The notes under the pieces are model-generated. The model made no database searches. It worked only from the letters and a program-made list of their open reading frames with translations, and was not told the origin of the DNA. DNA of 64,000 nt, taken from contig CAVZAU010000005.1 of assembly GCA_963773445.1 (NCBI GenBank), positions 280,944 to 344,943 of the forward strand, read 5' to 3'. Shown piece by piece: positions 13,831-62,846 of this stretch; the stretch's first letter is position 1, and every line of letters begins with the position of its first letter. The DNA is from an uncultured Actinomycetes bacterium (lineage in GTDB: Bacteria > Actinomycetota > Thermoleophilia > Solirubrobacterales > 70-9). The position numbers and the translations under genes were made by a program.

Positions 13831-15105
13831 TTAGCTAGGGACGCGCTCGACGGCGCGGGCGGCGATGTCGGTGCGGATCTGCATTCCCTCGAAGGTGATC
13901 CGGCTGGCGGCATCGTATGCACGATCGCGCGCCTCGGCGGGACTGCTACCCAGCCCCGTCACGTTCAGCACCCGGCCACCGGCGGTGACGATCTGGCCGC
14001 CGCGCTCGGCGGTACCCGCGTGGGTCACCTCGGCGATCTCCGCCGCCTCGGCGAGGCCGCTGATTACATCCCCCCTGGAGGAGGACTCCGGGTAGCCGGC
14101 GGAGGCGAGGACGACGGTCACCGCCCAGTTGTCGTCGAATTCGGCGGTGACGCCGGCGAGGCCGCCGGGCTCGCGGGAGGCGAGGAAGAGCTCACCGAGG
14201 TCGGAGCGTAGGCGCGGCAGCACCGCCTGGGTCTCGGGGTCGCCGAAGCGGGCGTTGAACTCGAGCACCTTCAGTCCCTCGGGTCCAATCATCAGCCCGG
14301 CGTAGAGGACGCCGTGGAAGGGGACGCCGCGGGCGGCCATCGTCGCCACCACCGGGCGGTGGACCCCCTCGACGATCTCCTCGACCTCGGCGGCGCCGAA
14401 GCCGGGGACGGGGGAGTAGCTGCCCATGCCGCCGGTGTTGGGTCCCTCGTCGCCGTCGAAGATTCGCTTGTAGTCCTGGGCGGGTGCGAGGGGGACGACG
14501 TTCTCGCCGTCGCAGAGCGCCAGCAGCGAGAGCTCCTCGCCCTCGAGGAAGTCCTCGAGCACGACCGTGGTGCTGCCGAAGCGCTGCTCGGTGAAGAAGA
14601 CGTCGACCGCCTCGCGCCCCTCGCCCTCGTCCTGGCAGATGATCACGCCCTTGCCCGCGGCGAGTCCGTCGGCCTTGAGCACGGTGGGATAGGAGCAGCT
14701 CGCCAGCCGCTCGAGCGCTTCCTCGCGGCTGCGCAGCAGCAGGTGTGAAGCGGTCGGCACTCCGGCCTCCTCCATCAGCTCCTTGGCAAACGCCTTCGAC
14801 CCCTCCAGCGCGGCCGCGTCCCTGAGCGGGCCGAAGGCGGGGATGCCCGAGCCCTCCAGCGCGTCGACCGCTCCGGCGACCAGCCCAGCCTCGGGGCCGA
14901 TCACGACGAGGTCGACGCCGTTCTCCTTGGCCGCGGCGACGATCGCGGCGGCATCGTCGGCCGCGACGTCGGGGAGGCAGCCGGCATCGGCCGCGATGCC
15001 CGCGTTGCCCGGCGCGCAGAGGACGTCGGTGACCTGCGGCGAGCGCCGCAGCGCCCGCACGATCGCGTGCTCGCGCCCGCCTCCGCCTACGACCAGCGCC
15101 TTCAA
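13831..15105 (-). CDS. purD: Phosphoribosylamine-glycine ligase
   Basis: 424-aa ATP-grasp protein: [15 protein letters not shown]-terminus and later [12 protein letters not shown]. Confidence 0.97.
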
Positions 15106-15110
15106 CGCGG

Positions 15111-15392
15111 CTACAGCGAACCGGCCAGGTCGCCGGCCGGAATCGCGGCCAGCGTCTGGCTCGTCATCGTCCCGCGTGAGCCCAGCTCGACGGAGACCTT
15201 CGCCATCGTCTTGTCATCAGGCGCCTCGACCACGGTGACGAAGTCGTACTGCCCGAGCGTGGCGTACTGCGAGACCACCTTCACCCCCATCTGTTCGACC
15301 TCGCGGTTCACCTCGTCGATCCGCCCCGGGTTGTTCTTCAGCGTTCGAACGCCCTCGGCGGTCAGGTTGGTCAGCATCAAGAAAGTCGGCAT
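15111..15392 (-). CDS. GYD domain protein
   Basis: 93 aa, [22 protein letters not shown]...[14 protein letters not shown], typical of the GYD family. Confidence 0.85.
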
Positions 15393-15455
15393 CTCCGCCC
15401 CCTTCAGATCAATGGTCGAACCTCTGCTTCAACCGTACTGCTTCCGGGCGGGTGA

Positions 15456-15558
15456 GGGGACCGGGTGCCCCTCTCCCGAAGACCGTCGCGCAGCTGGGAC
15501 GTGCTGCTGGGCGCCACCGTGGTCTCAGGAGCCTTCGTGAGAGGGGCACCCGGTCCCC
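15456..15558. repeat. Hairpin-bounded repeat unit 1 (103 nt) with perfect 18-bp terminal stem
   Basis: GGGGACCGGGTGCCCCTC (15456-15473) is the exact reverse complement of GAGGGGCACCCGGTCCCC (15541-15558). The interior is homologous to the reverse complement of unit 2. Confidence 0.9.
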
Positions 15559-15580
15559 TTGCTCCTCCGATGAGGGGGCA

Positions 15581-15617
15581 TGGCGCTTTTGTTACCCATA
15601 GGTTCACAAAAGCGCCA
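15581..15617. repeat. Central 12-bp stem hairpin between the two units
   Basis: TGGCGCTTTTGT (15581-15592) pairs with ACAAAAGCGCCA (15606-15617) across a 13-nt loop. Confidence 0.85.
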
Positions 15618-15642
15618 ATGGATCTAGCCGGCGGAGTCGGAA

Positions 15643-15747
15643 GGAGGGTTCTATGCCCCTCCCACAGAGGCTCCTGAGACCACAAATGCGCCCTGCACAC
15701 CGCCCCAGCTGCGCGACGGTCTCTGGGGGAGGGGCATAGAACCCTCC
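15643..15747. repeat. Hairpin-bounded repeat unit 2 (105 nt, inverted relative to unit 1) with perfect 20-bp terminal stem
   Basis: GGAGGGTTCTATGCCCCTCC (15643-15662) pairs with GGAGGGGCATAGAACCCTCC (15728-15747). Interior blocks 15669-15683 and 15706-15723 are exact reverse complements of 15519-15533 and 15481-15498. Confidence 0.9.
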
Positions 15748-15756
15748 ACCCACGCC

Positions 15757-17409
15757 CTAGTACGCGTAGTAGCCGGCGTGAATGTGGTCGCAGTGGTCCG
15801 GCAGGGCGAAGGCCGGGCCGAGGCCGTCGAGGTCGAAGCAGTAGATCAGCTCGGTCGGGTGCAGCGGGTCCGGCAGCTGGGCGAGGGCGTAGCCGAGCTC
15901 GGCGCAGGGGGCGGTGGTGGAGGTGTCGGTGCAGGAGACGCCGTCGACGGCTGCGATGTCCATCGCCCGGCCGTAGAAGTGGTTGGAGACATTGCCCGAG
16001 GCGGTCATCTGCGAGTGGTCGGAGCGCAGGGCGGTGATCGTGATCTGGTGGTCCTTGGTCATCAGCGCCAGCAGGCCGACGACGCGCTGGTCGAGGAGGC
16101 CGGCCTGGATATCCCGCAGCTCGAGGTCGTTGGAGAGGGTGAGGTTCTGCCAGTTGATCTGGGAGGCCGTGTCGCCGGGGAGGACGATCGTCCACTCCTT
16201 GCTGGTGACCGCGCACTTGCCGGCCAGCTGGTCGGCCTCGCTGGCGACGGCGTCGACGTACCAGGCGGCCTGGTTGTGGGTGAAGACGCCGGCGTCGATG
16301 CCCCCGCGCGACCACATCAGGCGGGCCAGGGTCGCCGCCGAGTCGTCGACGTCGCCGTGGCGGATGCGGCCGTCTTCGTCGCCGTCGACTGCGTAGTTGC
16401 TCCACTCCATCTTGTCGAGGCCGAGTGGCCCGAAGGTGCGCAGCTGCTGCTTGCTCATGCCGCGTCCGAAGTTCGACTCCAGGCGGGTGATCGCCGCCAG
16501 CGTCCAGACGCCGCGCTTGCCCAGTTCGTAGCGGCCGGCGGCTGCCTCGAAGGCCCCCAGGTAGTCCTCGGGGATCTCCTTCTTCCAACCGTCGGACGGG
16601 GTGCACTTGAGGACCTGGATCTGCGGCGTCAGGGTCAGCGTCGTGTAGCTGCCCCCGACTTCGTCGGCGTAGCAGCCGGCGTTCTGCAGCACCTCTTCGA
16701 CGTACCAGTCGGCGTGGTTGTAGGCGAAGATCGCGCCCCAGACGTCTGCCGGCATGCCGGCGGCGCTGAGGTAGCGGGCGGCGGCGTAGATCGCGTCTTC
16801 GGGGTTGTTCGGGTCCGTGACCCCGTCGCCGTTGGCGTCGACCCCGTACATCGCCCAGGTTTCCGGCATGAACTGCATCCAGCCGACCGCACCGGCTGAG
16901 GAGGGGCCGAGGTTGGTCCCGAAGGCGGTCTCGATTGCGTTGATCCCGGCCAGGATCGCCGGCCCCTGCGGACCCAGCGCGTACTGGTCGGAGGCGCGGT
17001 GGTAGATCGGGATCAGCACCGGCGGCACGCCGTTGATCGCGCAGCTGGAGCTCGGCAACGAGGGGATCGTGAAGGCGCCGGGGCCGGGCGCGGTGGTGGC
17101 GCCGATGCCGGGGGTGGCGTCGGCTTCTTCGGGGGCTTCGGCTTCGACCCCGCCTTCGCCGTCGCCGACTCCGCCGTTGGGGGCGGGCGATTCCGTTGCC
17201 GGGGCCGGCGGCGGGACCAGAGTTTCGTTCTGCTTGACCGGCGGTTGGTTTGCTTCGGTCGGACTGCCGGCGCCTTCGAGGGCCGATCCCGGCACCAGGC
17301 CGCTGGCGGGCGCCGCCCCCTCGGCTTGTGCCACGGCGATCGGTACCGCCAACGCCGCGGTCGCCGCCGCGGTCGCCAGCGCCGCCTTGATCTTGCGCGT
17401 GTGCTCCAT
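15757..17409 (-). CDS. Secreted multidomain peptidoglycan hydrolase (two lytic-transglycosylase-like domains plus LAS/M15-type metallopeptidase)
   Basis: Signal peptide MEHTRKIKAALATAAATAALAVPIAVAQA. Motifs: AIETAFG...GWMQFMPETW (SLT-like), a second ITRLESNFG domain, and C-terminal SNHFYGRAMD (Hx6D) with DHIH (HxH). ATG 17409 overlaps the upstream stop (ATGA). Confidence 0.88.
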   Translation of the reverse strand: MEHTRKIKAALATAAATAALAVPIAVAQAEGAAPASGLVPGSALEGAGSPTEANQPPVKQNETLVPPPAPATESPAPNGGVGDGEGGVEAEAPEEADATPGIGATTAPGPGAFTIPSLPSSSCAINGVPPVLIPIYHRASDQYALGPQGPAILAGINAIETAFGTNLGPSSAGAVGWMQFMPETWAMYGVDANGDGVTDPNNPEDAIYAAARYLSAAGMPADVWGAIFAYNHADWYVEEVLQNAGCYADEVGGSYTTLTLTPQIQVLKCTPSDGWKKEIPEDYLGAFEAAAGRYELGKRGVWTLAAITRLESNFGRGMSKQQLRTFGPLGLDKMEWSNYAVDGDEDGRIRHGDVDDSAATLARLMWSRGGIDAGVFTHNQAAWYVDAVASEADQLAGKCAVTSKEWTIVLPGDTASQINWQNLTLSNDLELRDIQAGLLDQRVVGLLALMTKDHQITITALRSDHSQMTASGNVSNHFYGRAMDIAAVDGVSCTDTSTTAPCAELGYALAQLPDPLHPTELIYCFDLDGLGPAFALPDHCDHIHAGYYAY

Positions 17410-18260
17410 CAGCCGAGGACGTTGACCACTCGCCACTGCTTGTCTTTCAGCCGTTCCATTTCCAGCCGCAGCTCGCTGGTGGCGCCGACTCGCAGGAGCG
17501 AGACGCTGACCGGATAGATGCGGTCGTGCGAGGGGGCGGGGACGACGTTGAGGACTTTCGCCTTCGGGACCTTGACCCCGGCAGGCTGGCGCGGCGGCCG
17601 CTGCAGCAGCGCCTTCGTCACCTGCGGCGTCGCGGTTGCCTTGAAGGCTTTGCGGACCTCGCTCTTCCCAGCGCCGGTCTCGTAGACGACGAAGGCGTCG
17701 GCGAACTTGCGGGCGACGGCGATCGCGGCGGGACCTGCGGGCGGGCCGTCGACGCTGGCGGCGGCCGAGGCGGTGGCGCCGGCCGCGGGCTGGGCGGAGG
17801 GGTTGGTTGAGAAGGTGTCGGTGGCGGGGTTGCCGGTGTTGCTGGCGGTGGCGACCGGCGCTTCGCTCGGGTGGGCCTTCGACCCCTCGACCTGGGAGCG
17901 GTCATCCGCCGAAGCCTTGAAGACCGGGGTCGCCCCCTGCAGGGTCGGGACGGGGTCGGGCTTCGGCGCTGCTTCGACCGGCGCGGGCTCGGGTGCCGGC
18001 GCGCTCGTCACGGCGACCTGGGGCGCGGGCGCCGGCCCACTGCCGCCCGATGAAGCGAGCGAGTAGCCGCCGATGCCCAGCGCCAGCGCCAGCACCACGG
18101 CGCCGCCGGCGACGAGGGCGCGGCCGCCCTCGCCGAGACTGCGGAAGTAGTCCTCACCTCGCCAGAGCAGGTTGTCGCGCAGGGCCAGCGAGAGGTCCTC
18201 GAGGGCCTCCTCCCGGCGCCGCTGCGGGCGCGTGTTGATCGGGGTCTGGTCGTCGTTCAT
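17409..18260 (-). CDS. Membrane-anchored Pro/Ala-rich hypothetical protein
   Basis: 283 aa with one TM (LVAGGAVVLALALGIGGYSLA), a P/A-rich linker and a ~100-aa C-terminal globular domain. Translationally coupled to the hydrolase gene. Confidence 0.7.
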   Translation of the reverse strand: MNDDQTPINTRPQRRREEALEDLSLALRDNLLWRGEDYFRSLGEGGRALVAGGAVVLALALGIGGYSLASSGGSGPAPAPQVAVTSAPAPEPAPVEAAPKPDPVPTLQGATPVFKASADDRSQVEGSKAHPSEAPVATASNTGNPATDTFSTNPSAQPAAGATASAAASVDGPPAGPAAIAVARKFADAFVVYETGAGKSEVRKAFKATATPQVTKALLQRPPRQPAGVKVPKAKVLNVVPAPSHDRIYPVSVSLLRVGATSELRLEMERLKDKQWRVVNVLG

Positions 18261-26280: not shown

Positions 26281-26294
26281 GGGCAGTCCTCGCC

Positions 26295-26337
26295 GAGACC
26301 GCAAAATTCCTTCCTCGAGAGGGAATTTTGCGGTTTC
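26295..26337. terminator. Hairpin between convergent genes; variant of the GAGACCGCAAAA hairpin family
   Basis: GAGACCGCAAAATTCC (26295-26310) pairs with GGAATTTTGCGGTTTC (26322-26337) with one mismatch. Lies between stops at 26280 (+) and 26347 (-). Confidence 0.5.
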
Positions 26338-26346
26338 GCGGGGGGC

Positions 26347-26766
26347 TCAGCCGTTGCCGGCGGTGCGGGCGACGAATTCGGAGACTTCCTTCGCCTGCTC
26401 TTCGTTGAGGATGCCGCCCGGCATCCGGCCCGGGGTGGTCGAGCTGTCGACGCCCTGTTCGATCGCGTTGAGGACGCGGCCTTCGGTCTGTTTGATCGTT
26501 TCCTCGGCGGTTTTGCCTTCCGGCGGACCGTTGGGTGCGAGCAGTTCGTCGAGGTTAGGCGCGTAGTTGCCGTCGGTTCCGGCGCTGTAGAGCGCGTGGC
26601 AGGTGCCGCAGTTGGTGACGAAGAGGGACTGGCCGTCCTCGAGGCTCGCCGGGACCTTGTCCTCCCCGTTCTCCCCGTCGCCCTTGGCGCGGAAGGCGGC
26701 GAAGGGGATGACCACGGCGAGGACGAGGACGAAGACCCCGAACCAGATGAAGGTGCGCTTGCTCAT
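26347..26766 (-). CDS. Membrane-anchored class I cytochrome c
   Basis: N-terminal TM, CGTCH heme-binding motif and distal GRMPGG. The start overlaps the upstream stop (ATGA). Confidence 0.85.
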   Translation of the reverse strand: MSKRTFIWFGVFVLVLAVVIPFAAFRAKGDGENGEDKVPASLEDGQSLFVTNCGTCHALYSAGTDGNYAPNLDELLAPNGPPEGKTAEETIKQTEGRVLNAIEQGVDSSTTPGRMPGGILNEEQAKEVSEFVARTAGNG

Positions 26767-30275: not shown

Positions 30276-30291
30276 TCCAAGCCCAAACGCC

Positions 30292-30334
30292 GAGACCGCA
30301 AAAACCCGGGTTGTAGACGGGTTTTTGCGGTCTC
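30292..30334. terminator. Perfect 17-bp stem hairpin downstream of ino1; member of a repeated hairpin family
   Basis: GAGACCGCAAAAACCCG (30292-30308) pairs with CGGGTTTTTGCGGTCTC (30318-30334). 30296-30337 is 40/42 identical to 62805-62846. Confidence 0.5.
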
Positions 30335-31656
30335 GCGCTTTTCTGGGCTCTTATTCTGCTCCCGTGGCCTCTGAACCCCTCTCGATCGCCCAGGTCTTTC
30401 CCGTTCGCCGGGCGGGTGAGAACCCGGCGGCGCGATTTGCCACCGCCGTCAGCGAGGAGCTGGAGCGGCGGGGGCACGAGGTGCTGCGGGTCAAGACCGG
30501 GGACCCGGTCAGACGGCTGCTGAAATCCCGGCCGCTCGACGTCGTCCACGTCCACGACCCGTTCGCGCCGAGCGCCCCCTCGGCGGCGCTGCGGCACTCG
30601 TTTTCACTCAACGTCGCCACCTTCCACGACCCGCGGGAGCGGGTGCTGGCGACCCAGGTGGCGCGGCCGCTGGTCGAGATCTTCTTCGGCCGGATCGACG
30701 CGCGAACGGTGACGCGACCGGAGACGGCGCAGCTGCTGGAGCAGTTCTTCCCGGCCGGATACGAGCTGCTCAACGGGGTCGCTCCCGATGGCGACCAGGA
30801 CTGGGGGCGGATCGCCGACGAACTGGAAGCGACCTACCGCCGCCTGCTGGCGCGCCGGCACGATCCGACCGGAGACCCCGCGGTGCGCGAGCGGATCTCG
30901 AAGCGGCCCTTGATCGAGGTCGACCTGCACATGCACACCGACCACTCCGGCGACTGCGCGACGCCGGTCGACGTCCTCATCAATACCGCCCGCGACCGCG
31001 GCCTGGGGGCGATCGCGGTCACCGATCACAACGAGGTCTCGGGCGCGATCGAGGCGCGCAGGCTGGCCGAAGAGCTGGGCGACATCAAGGTGATCGTCGC
31101 CGAGGAGGTGAAGACGGCCGAGCAGGGAGAGGTGATCGGCCTCTTCCTCGAGGAGAAGATCCCAAAGGGGCTGACGATGGCGGAGACGATCCGCGAGATC
31201 CGCGCCCAGGGCGGGCTCGTCTACGTTCCCCACCCGTTCGACCGCTTCCATTCGGTGCCCGACTACGAGCACCTGCTGGACATGGTCGAGGAGATCGACC
31301 TGCTCGAGGTCTTCAACCCGCGGGTGGCGGTGACCGCGTTCAACGAGGAGGCGGTGCGCTTCGCCGCCAAGTACCGGATCGTCCCCGCCGCCGGCTCCGA
31401 CAGCCACGTCGCCCAGGGGCTCGGCAGCGTGCGGCAGCGGATCCACGACTTCGACGGGCCGGCCGAGTTCCTCGAGGCGATGCGGGATGCCGACATCACC
31501 CGCAAGCACAAGAACCTCGTCTACGTGCAGACGCTGAAGTTCCTGCAGACGACGGGGCGGCCGAAGGCGCCGAAACGGCGGGTGCCGGACGCGAAACCGG
31601 TGCGGGGCGGGCGGCCGCGGAGGGGCAAAGAGGGGCGGCGGGCGAGCAAGTCCTGA
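30325..31656 (+). CDS. Fusion protein: truncated GT4-like glycosyltransferase N-terminal half plus PHP-family metal-dependent phosphoesterase
   Basis: The N-terminal ~190 aa resemble a GT-B N-half (RGHEVLRV, DVVHVHDP, TFHD, ...LLNGV). The C-terminal part is PHP (DLHMHTDHSGD, VTDHN, YVPHPFD, GSDSH). TTG 30325 lies inside the hairpin; GTG 30364 is an alternative start. Confidence 0.85.
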   Translation: MRSRAFLGSYSAPVASEPLSIAQVFPVRRAGENPAARFATAVSEELERRGHEVLRVKTGDPVRRLLKSRPLDVVHVHDPFAPSAPSAALRHSFSLNVATFHDPRERVLATQVARPLVEIFFGRIDARTVTRPETAQLLEQFFPAGYELLNGVAPDGDQDWGRIADELEATYRRLLARRHDPTGDPAVRERISKRPLIEVDLHMHTDHSGDCATPVDVLINTARDRGLGAIAVTDHNEVSGAIEARRLAEELGDIKVIVAEEVKTAEQGEVIGLFLEEKIPKGLTMAETIREIRAQGGLVYVPHPFDRFHSVPDYEHLLDMVEEIDLLEVFNPRVAVTAFNEEAVRFAAKYRIVPAAGSDSHVAQGLGSVRQRIHDFDGPAEFLEAMRDADITRKHKNLVYVQTLKFLQTTGRPKAPKRRVPDAKPVRGGRPRRGKEGRRASKS

Positions 31657-43031: not shown

Positions 43032-43076
43032 AGCGGTGGGAGTTATCGCTGTATAGCGGCGATAAGTCCCACCGCT
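43032..43076. terminator. Hairpin between convergent genes
   Basis: AGCGGTGGGAGTTATCGC (43032-43049) pairs with GCGATAAGTCCCACCGCT (43059-43076), an 18-bp stem with one mismatch. Confidence 0.45.
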
Positions 43077-43890: not shown

Positions 43891-43986
43891 GCGCCCGTAG
43901 CTCAGTGGTCAACGGGTCCCTTCGGGGGCCCAAAGAGCGTCGGTCTTTCAAGCCGAAGGTCGCCGGTTCGAATCCGGTCGGGCGCA
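43891..43986 (+). tRNA. Atypical tRNA, anticodon UUC (Glu) by position, with an 18-nt hairpin inserted in the D-loop
   Basis: Hand-folded arms: acceptor GCGCCCG/CGGGCGC (7/7), D-stem GCTC/GAGC, anticodon arm TCGGT-CTTTCAA-GCCGA, T-arm GCCGG-TTCGAAT-CCGGT, discriminator A. The D-loop carries GGGTCCC-TTCG-GGGGCCC (43914-43931). 96 nt instead of ~76. Confidence 0.7.
43945..43962 (+). repeat. Direct repeat copy 1 (candidate attL core) inside the tRNA
   Basis: CTTTCAAGCCGAAGGTCG spans the anticodon loop to the variable loop. Identical to 49473-49490. Confidence 0.6.
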
Positions 43987-56604: not shown

Positions 56605-57615
56605 ATGCCGCCGCTGCTCGAGCGCCTCGGGGTGGAGCTGCCCGTCGTCCAGGCAGGGATGGGCGGCGGGCTGAGCCGGCACGAGCTGGCGGCGGCGGTC
56701 TCGGAGGCCGGTGGCCTGGGGACGATCGCGGTCAGCGGCGCGGCGGCGATCCGCCGCGAGCTGGCGGCGGCGCGGGCGCTGACCAGGCGCCCGCTCGCCG
56801 TCAACGTGCTGCTGCCGTTCGCGCGGCGGGACTGGTTCGAGGCCGGAGCCGCGGCGGAGGTCGTCGTCACCTTCTGGGGTAAGCCGCGGCGCCGCACGCC
56901 GGGCGCTTGGCTGCACCAGTGCGGCTCGGTCGCCGAGGCGCGGGAAGCGCAGGCGGCGGGCGCCGACGGCGTCATCGTCCAGGGCGTCGAGGCGGGCGGC
57001 CACGTGCGCGGGACGACGCCGGCGCTGGAGCTGCTCGAGCGGGTGCGCGAGGCACTGCCGCTGGACTATCCGCTGCTCCTCGCCGGGGGCATCGCCGAGC
57101 GCGCCGACGTCCACGCCGCCCTCGAGGCGGGAGCGACGGCGGCCGTCGCCGGCACCCGCTTCCTCCTCAGCGAGGAGAGCCGCGCCCACGCTCTATATAA
57201 GGAGCGCCTCCTCGCGGCAGACGAAACGCTCCTCACCGACCTCTTCGGCGCCGCCTGGCCCGCACCGCACCGGGTCGTCCCAAACGCCGCGACGGCCCGT
57301 TGGTTGGGCGGCGTTCGTCCTTTTCCGGGCATATGCCCGGAAAAGGACGAACGCCGGGTGGTTTTGCGCGCTCCTTCCGCGAATCGCGCCCTCAACCGCC
57401 TGCTGGCGCCTGGGGCTCGCTACACGCCGCCGTCCCTGCAGCTGCGGATGATGCGGGGGCAGCGGCCGGGGAGCCGGCTGCTGACGCCGGCGGGCCCGAC
57501 GGACGACGGGCCGGCGACGCTGGTCGACGCCGGGGCGCTCTACGCGGGGGAGACGGTGGCGCGAATCGACGCGGTTCGTCCCGCCGCCGACCTCGTCCGA
57601 GAACTTGCGGGTTGA
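56605..57615 (+). CDS. Nitronate monooxygenase / NPD-family FMN oxidoreductase carrying an in-frame palindromic insertion
   Basis: LPVVQAGMGGG, IVQGVEAGGH and LLAGGI motifs. 336 aa. Confidence 0.85.
   Translation: MPPLLERLGVELPVVQAGMGGGLSRHELAAAVSEAGGLGTIAVSGAAAIRRELAAARALTRRPLAVNVLLPFARRDWFEAGAAAEVVVTFWGKPRRRTPGAWLHQCGSVAEAREAQAAGADGVIVQGVEAGGHVRGTTPALELLERVREALPLDYPLLLAGGIAERADVHAALEAGATAAVAGTRFLLSEESRAHALYKERLLAADETLLTDLFGAAWPAPHRVVPNAATARWLGGVRPFPGICPEKDERRVVLRAPSANRALNRLLAPGARYTPPSLQLRMMRGQRPGSRLLTPAGPTDDGPATLVDAGALYAGETVARIDAVRPAADLVRELAG
57309..57356. repeat. Perfect 48-bp palindrome inside the NMO coding region
   Basis: CGGCGTTCGTCCTTTTCCGGGCAT|ATGCCCGGAAAAGGACGAACGCCG, with no mismatch and symmetry centre at 57332/57333. 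Confidence 0.95.
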
Positions 57616-62758: not shown

Positions 62759-62800
62759 ATGCGGGCGCAGGGCTAAAGGTCGTGCCTAGTCCCGTTTCGC

Positions 62801-62843
62801 GAAGCCGCAAAAACCCGGGCTGTATACGGGTTTTTGCGGTCTC
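62801..62843. terminator. Hairpin of the GCAAAAACCCG family downstream of the MBL gene
   Basis: GAAGCCGCAAAAACCCG (62801-62817) pairs with CGGGTTTTTGCGGTCTC (62827-62843). 62805-62846 is 40/42 identical to 30296-30337. Confidence 0.5.
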
Positions 62844-62846
62844 GCG

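Follow-up and report, generated by a model that had tools for sequence, protein, structure and literature searches.

We conclude that the intergenic region studied here carries members of a previously undescribed family of hairpin repeats. With a probability of about 55%, it is a mosaic of interspersed palindromes of the REP/BIME/REPIN kind that is reshuffled at the DNA level and either tolerated or used as a barrier at gene 3' ends. Our literature searches found no described repeat or terminator family for Solirubrobacterales or Conexibacter. The region lies in a 64-kb stretch of Solirubrobacterales DNA, the whole of which we call the window, where 364 bp separate the start codon of a GYD-domain gene (15392) from the stop codon of a 559-aa hydrolase ORF (15757). 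This gap was first described from the sequence-only reading, and its extent is confirmed; it is filled by two inverted hairpin units of ~105 nt and a central hairpin. The features of the locus are as follows.

13831-15105, minus strand: purD, following the GYD gene (Pfam GARS_N/A/C)
15111-15392, minus strand: gene for a 93-aa GYD-domain protein (Pfam GYD, 9e-32)
15393-15445, minus strand: conserved block upstream of the GYD gene, GGAAGCAGTACGGTTGAAGC...GAAGGGGGCGGAG then ATG (sequence comparison)
15455-15559, sense strand plus: unit 1, a type-1 hairpin repeat with 27-nt arms and a 51-nt asymmetric inter-arm module
15479-15498, plus strand: 5' loop motif of unit 1, AAGACCGTCGCGCAGCTGGG, with the invariant core CCGTCGCGCAGCTG (sequence conservation)
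15529-15534, plus strand: 3' loop motif GAGCCT of unit 1 (alignment A2)
15581-15617, no strand assigned: central "H" hairpin, GGCGCTTTTGT..ACAAAAGCGCC, with 17-nt arms of 88% complementarity
15643-15747, sense strand minus: unit 2, a type-1 hairpin repeat 8-9 nt past the stop codon of the SLT-domain hydrolase gene
15668-15673, minus strand: counterpart of the 3' loop motif in unit 2 (alignment A2)
15704-15723, minus strand: 5' loop motif of unit 2, as in unit 1 (sequence conservation)
15757-17436, minus strand: gene for a 559-aa SLT transglycosylase-domain protein (Pfam SLT_2, 1.6e-15; SLT, 7.2e-10)

Each unit has two 27-nt arms of 96% complementarity (15455-15481 with 15533-15559 in unit 1; 15643-15669 with 15721-15747 in unit 2), and within them lie the perfect stems of 18 bp (unit 1) and 20 bp (unit 2) that had been claimed from the letters. 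The two units together form an inverted repeat of 83 nt (82%). The claim of exact shared interior blocks also holds: the 18-mer GACCGTCGCGCAGCTGGG occurs in exactly two places (15481-15498 on the plus strand and 15704-15721 on the minus strand), and GTGGTCTCAGGAGCC is likewise found exactly twice. The predicted minimum free energies are -82.6 kcal/mol for unit 1 (z = -8.1) and -72.8 kcal/mol for unit 2 (z = -7.2), and the fold of the whole region has z = -16 on both strands; the structure of the region is far beyond chance. Unit 2 has the orientation of the hydrolase gene upstream of it, and unit 1 faces the GYD start, with no plus-strand gene upstream. Our covariance model R1 matches unit 1 at 15449-15567 (plus strand, 118.5 bits) and unit 2 at 15635-15753 (minus strand, 116.9 bits); this is the only locus of the type-1 model in the window, which also holds no type-2 loops, type-4 loops, or arm boxes elsewhere.

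The central H hairpin sits where the sequence-only reading had placed it, folds with -22.4 kcal/mol (z = -4.4), and belongs to a second family of hairpin repeats. Orthologues occur at the same locus in relatives (L127, L128, L204, L205, L206, and L207), with arms that co-vary even among near-identical genomes and with one mismatched intermediate (L204); related hairpins are found in a composite element of the metagenome-assembled genome (MAG) CAWEOH01 and at L125. The H hairpin was rejected as a promoter: TTGACA is present in relatives, but without a suitably spaced -10. The block at 15393-15445, kept at every orthologous locus including an empty one, marks the right border of the variable sequence. 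It is the presumed promoter and ribosome-binding region of the GYD gene; a consensus promoter scan found none in the region, this block included. The ORFs that overlap the region (15404-16606 on the minus strand, 15465-15677 and 15067-15540 on the plus strand) were rejected as an explanation. Contigs with an identical GYD protein lack the region or have other sequence in its place, so that these ORFs are not conserved; this is in keeping with the earlier view that no plausible coding sequence accounts for it.

The sequence-only reading had proposed a search for other genomic copies, and this brought to light a repeat family in which compensatory changes are kept. When one genome per species was scanned with the 18-mer, the matches listed included ~73 true units, nearly all of those listed being in Solirubrobacterales or actinomycete MAGs, with at least several loci per genome or MAG; by a rough estimate, each 60-180 kb of flanking sequence holds ~1 further site. 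Every unit lies outside called genes, and viral contigs gave five chance matches to the 18-mer and zero units. The type-1 unit (~105 nt) consists of two inverted arms and an asymmetric, orientation-specific inter-arm module of ~51 nt. Its arms pair into a G+C-rich hairpin of 27-33 bp that is almost purely Watson-Crick, but they are also self-complementary (of the type GGAGGG-N7/8-CCCCTC) and look like REP palindromic units. Single 24-nt arms fold alone (mean of -10.0 versus -6.1 kcal/mol in shuffles; p = 3e-20), and one locus (L126) carries one arm standing alone. As in REP-type elements, the palindromic arm is short and extragenic; as in REP/BIME mosaics, arms face each other in inverted orientation across conserved modules (type 1, type 2, or type 4), and whole units follow one another as sense and then antisense, with spacers and H hairpins between them.

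The pairing of the arms is preserved while their sequence is not. Stem sequences vary from copy to copy and between orthologues, and the outer 12-14 bp are not the same in unit 1 and unit 2, nor at different loci within one MAG. In the alignment of 62 family members (A2), 23 of 26 long-stem pairs (29 predicted pairs overall) show compensatory changes; 98.3% of cells are paired (shuffles, 77.4%; slid controls, 40-56%), and 361 cells are changed on both sides, compared to 84 in shuffles. The outer-stem co-variation first proposed from the two copies of the window, which alone were insufficient, is thus borne out by the family. Compensatory stem changes are seen as well among the orthologous units behind ftsI in seven genomes. 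Mispairs of the G-U kind (17 cells) and the A-C kind (14 cells) are equally rare in the main stem, with no strand asymmetry, and therefore there is no wobble tolerance. A stem without wobble fits a DNA-level origin of the complementarity.

The hydrolase-GYD locus itself has been turned over rapidly. Orthologous spacers contain type-1, type-2, or type-4 loop modules, H hairpins, or nothing, and they range from 59 to 433 bp across six contigs that encode an identical (100%) GYD protein; five module architectures occur among these contigs and the window. One of the contigs (L208) has an empty spacer of 59 bp from which the whole repeat block is absent. Another locus (L203) has an orthologue of the window's unit 1 with the same stem but a different left unit, and a unit similar to unit 1 is present at L120. 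The repeat block is a hot spot of insertion and deletion. In addition, MAG CAWEOH01 shows a recent burst, with at least nine copies of an ~800-bp composite of such modules at 93-97% identity; terminal stems are common to copies of this burst only.

Bursts and presence/absence polymorphism, together with the repeated, hairpin-ended, noncoding character of the units, are what would be expected of a pair of classical MITEs or of IS200/IS605-type PATEs whose conserved ends are recognized by a transposase. We nevertheless consider this origin very improbable. The terminal arms differ among the copies of one genome, the two units of the window included, and a comparison of the empty site of L208 (TAG CCCGCC GGAAGC) with filled sites revealed no direct repeat at the borders; on these grounds, namely, differing terminal repeats and no target-site duplication, the classical MITE was rejected. 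The PATE was rejected because paired units are inverted, unlike the co-oriented ends of IS200/IS605 elements, and because no Y1 transposase signal was found. The latter test is weak, as tblastn of 1.3 Mb with approximate queries for IS608 TnpA and the Escherichia coli RAYT gave nothing below E = 0.1; the IS200/IS605-type transposase envisaged by the sequence-only reading was accordingly not seen in that sequence. The family was also not found in viral contigs.

REP-type elements typically exceed 100 copies per genome, carry a conserved tetranucleotide (GTAG or CGTC) at one palindrome end, and are accompanied by a cognate RAYT (a Y1 HUH transposase). Of 80 units, only 9 have GTAG close to the 5' base of the stem; TAG on the 5' side (10) is matched by CTA on the 3' side (11), and CGTC is present inside the loop core, not at the palindrome foot. 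We count as points against a REP-like mosaic the lack of a RAYT-like gene (in the same weak, approximate-query test), the lack of a GTAG tag, the nonconserved stems, and the presence of just one locus in the 64-kb window.

The inter-arm module of the type-1 unit has the invariant signature CCGTCGCGCAGCTG...GAGCCT. The GAGCCT element (columns 84-89 of A2, which lay outside the search seed) is conserved in 59-62 of the 62 sequences. The 14-nt core CCGTCGCGCAGCTG is conserved in 23-24 of 24 units at each position, these 24 being free of seed bias in that a protein search led to them or their sequence departs from the 18-mer seed. An invariant, asymmetric loop core combined with co-varying stems is what one classically expects of a functional RNA, and it is possible, though on balance unlikely, that the type-1 unit is primarily a cis-acting structured RNA of the 3' UTR (for protein binding, processing, localization, or catalysis) that presents the invariant loop on a long stem and that its mobility and turnover are secondary. 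Such a role would agree with a candidate inner helix (positions 37-42 with 72-78, GUCGCG with YGYGRY) that is 80% paired and rich in G-U, many of these pairs being mismatches on the opposite strand, and with pair 45:87, where all three changes are G-C to G-U. However, G-U is no commoner than A-C in the main stem, and the 51-nt loop has no consistent fold: per-sequence folds disagree, a 3-bp loop helix predicted by RNAalifold never co-varies, and the candidate inner helix has an invariant 5' side. A tetraloop signal in the variable part of the loop was not significant (TTCG 13 versus CGAA 9). Moreover, stems of the type-1 kind also carry other loop types (type-2 and type-4 modules), and the Rfam scan that had been suggested from the sequence gave no relevant match: at the gathering score, Rfam 15 found two tRNAs only in the 64-kb window, and the best matches of a permissive search were microRNA hairpin models far below threshold.

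The position of the units relative to genes is strongly biased. Of 89 units, 53 lie 3-33 nt past a stop codon, and solo units adjoining a stop codon are sense-only in 33 cases and antisense-only in 3 (p = 2e-7). Close pairs are arranged sense then antisense in 17 of 17 cases, many of them between convergent genes; the spacers of these other doublets have no shared hairpin, only a recurrent GAGCTTCC-like word. The suggestion of a bidirectional 3'-end element thus came close, as an inverted pair is the architecture of the family where two transcription units meet. Units are kept across species at orthologous sites behind ftsI, ftsZ, an acyl-CoA dehydrogenase gene, and a cupin gene, and several lie inside conserved operons, the ftsI unit being ~13 nt from the next ORF. 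Both the 33:3 bias toward the sense of the upstream gene and this retention across species speak for a structured RNA, whereas presence/absence and module swaps beside an identical GYD protein speak against an essential locus-specific role. The orientation bias, the invariant asymmetric loop, and the orthologous retention are explained by a dedicated RNA function at least as well as by a selfish element.

Hairpins that directly follow stop codons, are very stable, and form pairs between convergent genes could also be an ordinary bidirectional terminator, in which three hairpins end the hydrolase transcript without any family or mobile character. We regard this as improbable. A terminator scan of 15000-16200 returned 0 terminator-like sites, and the 3' flanks in A2 are C-rich rather than T-rich, with no U-tract 3' of the stem. 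The units are G+C-rich hairpins behind stop codons, but they are not canonical intrinsic terminators because they lack the U-tract, and true termination is therefore doubtful. Mycobacterial RNA polymerase has been reported to require a U-tract (PMC3993855), which makes the terminator activity of the units uncertain. In addition, the 14-nt invariant core is common to dozens of loci in many species, some copies lie within operons, and the element is missing from a contig with an identical GYD protein, where the spacer is just 59 bp.

Stems that are perfect Watson-Crick palindromes without wobble, found at gene 3' ends and between convergent genes, might instead bind a protein as DNA, for example, a nucleoid-associated protein or gyrase, to relieve supercoiling between transcription units, as has been proposed for some BIMEs. 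A role in supercoiling is mentioned for REPs (PMC3733652). We think this reading highly improbable, as a double-stranded palindrome would hardly be expected to show such a bias toward the sense of the upstream gene. Of the three origins offered by the sequence-only reading (a structured RNA, a MITE/PATE pair, or a complex bidirectional terminator), the co-varying stems and the repeated elements stand, and the MITE, the PATE, the canonical terminator, and a known RNA family do not. That reading had overlooked the second repeat family to which the central hairpin belongs, the palindromic nature of the stem arms, and the insertion/deletion hot spot.

Returning to the mosaic of REP-like palindromes, we envisage that the elements spread and reshuffle as DNA, either by recombination or gene conversion between shared arm boxes or through a mobilizing enzyme. 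Intrastrand template switching (quasi-palindrome correction), together with selection, would keep the arms perfectly complementary and would give stems that seem to co-vary yet contain hardly any G-U pairs. A unit that is transcribed as the 3' UTR of the gene before it would form a very stable hairpin, and the units probably act as transcript-end barriers. Such a barrier could attenuate read-through, block 3'-to-5' exonucleases, or insulate neighboring transcription units; in the window, it would shield GYD-purD from read-through of the hydrolase gene, and the antisense partner would offer the same barrier against transcription from the opposite side. One observation counted against a barrier is that a strong terminator would be harmful where units sit inside operons, as at ftsI. 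The invariant loop is most likely a recognition site for a trans-acting factor, which may be a mobilizing enzyme or an RNA-binding protein. More speculatively, and with a good deal of doubt, the CCGTCGCGCAGCTG...GAGCCT module could be a new functional RNA motif (a docking site for an RNA-binding or processing factor, or a fold like that of a small ribozyme) borne by a mobile hairpin. If so, interchangeable 3'-UTR modules (types 1, 2, and 4) behind genes such as ftsI and ftsZ would constitute a mobile layer of posttranscriptional control.

Much work has been done on the interspersed palindromic repeats of proteobacteria but hardly any on those of Solirubrobacterales, an abundant and poorly cultured order of soil bacteria. 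The family described here inverts the usual logic of REPs, as its arms are variable and its inter-arm module is invariant and orientation specific, and it follows a placement rule, being in sense orientation shortly after a stop codon. It is a natural example of palindromes that stay perfect despite fast turnover, and its invariant loop is a candidate handle on the factor that reads it, be this a mobilizing enzyme or an RNA-binding protein. For annotation, the family accounts for long "structured" intergenic regions that would otherwise be mistaken for novel RNAs or genes, and covariance model R1 is ready for use in annotating gene 3' ends in Solirubrobacterales genomes.

Among known systems, REPs are described as extragenic palindromes that alternate in orientation within BIMEs and are linked to termination, mRNA stabilization, and supercoiling (PMC2817692, PMC3733652). 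The family resembles the REPs and BIMEs of enterobacteria in that small extragenic palindromes stand head-to-head with conserved motifs between them, form mosaics of modules, occur at gene 3' ends and between cistrons, and are hot spots of strain variation. The proposed roles (termination or attenuation and protection of mRNA 3' ends) are also alike. In contrast to REPs, whose stems are conserved, the Solirubrobacterales arms vary by copy around an invariant inter-arm module. The family also differs in its strong orientation bias relative to the upstream gene and in its host, an actinomycete order, and it has no GTAG or CGTC tag at the palindrome foot and no RAYT in the 1.3 Mb covered by the approximate-query test.

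The REPINs of Pseudomonas are similar in that two inverted REP-like palindromes and a spacer form one hairpin of ~100 nt, and the family shares with them a singlet remnant (L126) and a population-like burst (the CAWEOH01 composite). REPIN arms are conserved and their spacer is variable, however, which is the reverse of what we find here; REPINs also have a known cognate transposase, RAYT, and no marked gene-orientation rule, whereas the orientation bias of our family is strong.

Correia/NEMIS elements of Neisseria and ERIC elements of enterobacteria are imperfect palindromes of ~100-150 nt that are cotranscribed with neighboring genes and form long RNA hairpins affecting mRNA processing and stability. 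They can be likened to the family in their size, imperfect palindromy, and hairpin formation, but have conserved terminal inverted repeats and target duplications, both of which the family lacks. Finally, the U-tract-less "terminator" hairpins of high-G+C actinobacteria are, like the units, G+C-rich stem-loops directly behind stop codons; the units differ from them in being much longer (27-33 bp) and in having a loop that is invariant across loci and species.

We conclude that the structural insight of the sequence-only reading, which described a 292-bp quasi-palindrome of two inverted hairpin units around a third hairpin, is right, but that the block is most likely a repeat-element mosaic, not a unique regulatory RNA. 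The description is borne out at 15456-15747, the third hairpin is present, and the block does fill the 364-bp gap between the flanking genes.

15392, minus strand: start of a 93-aa ORF, a GYD-domain protein (Pfam), followed by purD
15455-15481 and 15533-15559, plus strand: unit 1, two 27-nt arms, 96% complementary, with 51 nt between them
15581-15617: central hairpin (H hairpin)
15643-15669 and 15721-15747, minus strand: unit 2, two 27-nt arms, 96% complementary, with 51 nt between them
15757, minus strand: stop of a 559-aa ORF, an SLT-transglycosylase-domain protein (Pfam), the hydrolase

Units 1 and 2 form an 83-nt inverted repeat (82%), and the two exact blocks that they share are confined to them within the window. 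Unit 2 lies in sense behind the hydrolase gene; unit 1 is its antisense partner, adjoining the GYD upstream block. The whole region folds far beyond shuffles on either strand (z = -16), and the single units fold at -83 and -73 kcal/mol (z about -8 and about -7 against shuffles). No Rfam family matches the hairpin region.

The units belong to a family that we call type 1. A scan of one genome per species with the 18-mer GACCGTCGCGCAGCTGGG returned at least 117 stretches. About 73 of the 120 listed matches are type-1 hairpin units, almost all from Solirubrobacterales or actinomycete MAGs and often from several loci per MAG; the other listed matches are chance occurrences inside genes of other phyla. 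In the consensus of 62 distinct aligned units, the long stem includes a conserved CCCCTC/GAGGGG box, and 36 of the 62 units have a C-U mismatch five pairs away from the loop; the loop is asymmetric, with an invariant 5' part (AGACCGTCGCGCAGCTGGG), a variable middle, and an invariant 3' part (GAGCCT). Compensatory changes occur at 23 of the 26 long-stem pairs (29 pairs are predicted in all). Paired cells make up 98.3%, compared to 77.4% in column shuffles and 40-56% with partners slid, and both partners are changed in 361 cells, compared to 84 in shuffles. The co-variation proposed from the two stems in the window was therefore correctly inferred and is family-wide. Wobble pairs are nearly absent from the stem (G-U in 17 and A-C in 14 of about 1,800 cells). 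The core CCGTCGCGCAGCTG is conserved in 23 to 24 of 24 units at every position, as counted in units free of seed bias (those without the exact seed or reached via protein search).

The arms are small palindromes in their own right, with the pattern GGAGGG-N7/8-CCCCTC (mean minimum free energy, -10.0 kcal/mol, versus -6.1 kcal/mol in shuffles; p = 3e-20). Thus, a unit is a pair of REP-like palindromic units in inverted orientation with a conserved inter-unit module between them, the same design as in REPINs and BIMEs. Weak matches of the family model on both strands are perfect hairpins with unrelated interiors, i.e., the same stem design with other loops. Two such modules, type 2 (…AGACACTCAACCTCGAGCCATAGCGAGAGGTGTCT…) and type 4 (GGGAGCACCTCCGCCG…GGCTCCATGCTGAGTACCC), occur singly or as inverted doublets at the hydrolase-GYD locus of relatives. 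In the spacers of the retrieved loci L118-L128 and L203-L207, these modules share the stem design and differ in their interiors; the 5' part of type 4 (GCAGCTCGGCGGG in L018:6775) is similar to type-1 GCAGCTGGGGCGG. The central hairpin is a member of a second repeat family, with orthologues at the hydrolase-GYD locus (L127, L128, L204-L207); related hairpins occur in L125 and within a composite repeat of the MAG CAWEOH01. At L005 4676-4720, a truncated unit beside a full one ends exactly after GCGCAGCTG, and at L064 6068-6199 a unit carries two copies of its 5' loop motif at a spacing of 45 nt; both suggest that the invariant loop core undergoes breakage or slippage. The word GAGCTTCC / GGAAGCTTC is repeated in paired-unit spacers (L014, L064, L076, L084, L097, and the CAWEOH01 composite) and is absent from the window's spacer.

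The hydrolase-GYD spacer is hypervariable among metagenomic loci whose hydrolase is 85-91% identical, and in six contigs with a GYD protein identical to that of the window (L203-L208), it ranges from 59 to 433 bp.

L126, L121: lone arm or short remnant
L122: single type 2
L123: double type 2
L118: single type 4
L119, L120: type 4 plus antisense type 1
L127: type-4 doublet plus H hairpin
L192: chimeric type 1
L208 (identical GYD): empty spacer, TAG CCCGCC GGAAGCAGTACGG…
L203 (identical GYD): unit 1 as in the window, type 4 replacing unit 2, H hairpin absent
L204, L206, L207 (identical GYD): type-4 doublet plus H hairpin
L205 (identical GYD): type 4 plus H hairpin

The GYD-side arm is homologous regardless of the enclosed module, and no direct repeat borders the variable block in the identical-GYD contigs compared. 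The mosaic of L128 contains, at 1024-1512 between the H hairpin and the type-1 unit, an ORF of 162 aa that lacks obvious relatives in the other loci. Among near-identical genomes, the H-hairpin arms vary while complementarity is kept (ACTT/AAGT in L128, CCTT/AAGG in L205, CTTTT/AAAAG in the window), with a mismatched intermediate in L204. In CAWEOH01, a composite of about 800 bp (a type-1 unit, 35/36-bp tandem repeats, H hairpins, and an inverted type-1 unit) is present in at least nine copies of 93-97% identity. It reaches about 890 bp in L024 (3986-4872), occurs also in L001, L020, L050, L052, L057, L058, L072, and L085, has no convincing ORF, and looks like a recently amplified nonautonomous element. 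Thus, module gain, loss, exchange, and occasional amplification far outpace change in the neighboring proteins.

Gene context at the fetched loci (GC3-based gene caller) reveals a strict placement. Solo units are found 3-33 nt past the stop codon of a same-strand gene, 33 sense only versus 3 antisense only (p = 2e-7, with independence overstated, as orthologous loci were counted separately). All 17 close pairs (L004, L014, L026, L029, L056, L067, L084, L093, L097, L113, L171, L176, L181, the window, and three composite copies) read sense unit, spacer, antisense unit, and convergent genes flank many of them, one unit per gene end. Units occupy orthologous positions across species behind an ftsI-like PBP gene, ftsZ, an acyl-CoA dehydrogenase gene, a cupin gene, and ilvC; the outer stem of seven ftsI-linked orthologues varies in a compensatory way. 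The orientation bias, the retention at orthologous sites, and the invariant loop would also suit a dedicated structured 3'-UTR RNA, as would a candidate inner helix that is rich in G-U pairs, with 80% pairing on the sense strand and about 50% on the other. However, the loop has no consistent fold, loop types are swapped on the same stems, and the site is empty in a contig with an identical GYD protein; we consider such an RNA unlikely. At least one tested feature speaks against each of the remaining alternatives: a plain terminator, a classical MITE or PATE, and a binding site that acts purely at the DNA level.

In the repeat-element mosaic, arm complementarity may be kept largely at the DNA level by quasi-palindrome template switching, which would correct one arm to the other and so explain "co-variation" without G-U intermediates on very short time scales; selection for the hairpin probably helps. 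Modules may move or be swapped when the shared arm boxes undergo recombination or gene conversion or, alternatively, through a putative enzyme that reads the invariant loop. Units would be tolerated, perhaps favored, only in sense and close behind stop codons, where the transcribed hairpin could act as a 3'-end barrier (attenuation, exonuclease protection, and insulation of the next unit) and a sense-antisense doublet as a barrier in both directions. Full intrinsic termination is unlikely, because the stems have no U-tract 3' of them and copies lie inside operons (between ftsI and the next gene, about 13 nt from the next ORF); a terminator scan of the window region found nothing. Stabilization or partial attenuation would be a better guess.

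The window holds other hairpins. Near-identical 45-49-nt hairpins (CGAGACCGCAAAAACCCG..CGGGTTTTTGCGGTCTCG) at 30291-30335 and 62798-62846 and a related third at 26285-26347 each follow a stop codon at a distance of 0-16 nt; their 5' arm carries an A-tract and their 3' arm a T-tract. They seem to form a repeat family of their own, similar to bidirectional terminators. A perfect 48-bp palindrome at 57309-57356 (CGGCGTTCGTCCTTTTCCGGGCAT/ATGCCCGGAAAAGGACGAACGCCG) has a relative in the hairpin at L077:640. This palindrome and a similarly styled hairpin at 2101-2147, with a T-tract in its 5' arm, share the style of the central H hairpin. An 18-bp hairpin at 43032-43076 (AGCGGTGGGAGTTATCGC..GCGATAAGTCCCACCGCT), unrelated in sequence to the other hairpin families, sits exactly between the ends of two convergent genes, at distances of 5 nt and -1 nt. 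The tRNA call at 43891-43986 (96 nt against a 71-position model; 66 bits) is either a tRNA whose variable arm is long or one that carries an insertion.

REP/BIME elements and REPINs are the closest known systems to the Solirubrobacterales hairpin family. In two papers (PMC2817692, PMC3733652), these systems are described as extragenic palindromes in alternating orientation that carry GTAG or CGTC tags and are linked to termination, mRNA stabilization, and supercoiling. Two REP surveys do not mention Solirubrobacterales or Conexibacter. A weak test, tblastn with IS608 TnpA and E. coli RAYT probe sequences, found no RAYT in 1.3 Mb of retrieved sequence. The present family has the mosaic architecture and genomic behavior of these systems in common, but it differs in five respects: it has no tag at the palindrome foot, its arms are variable and its inter-arm module invariant, it obeys a strict gene-orientation rule, no RAYT was found by the weak test, and its host is an actinomycete. 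Given these differences, and as full-text literature searches found no published description of it, we count the family as REP-like but new.
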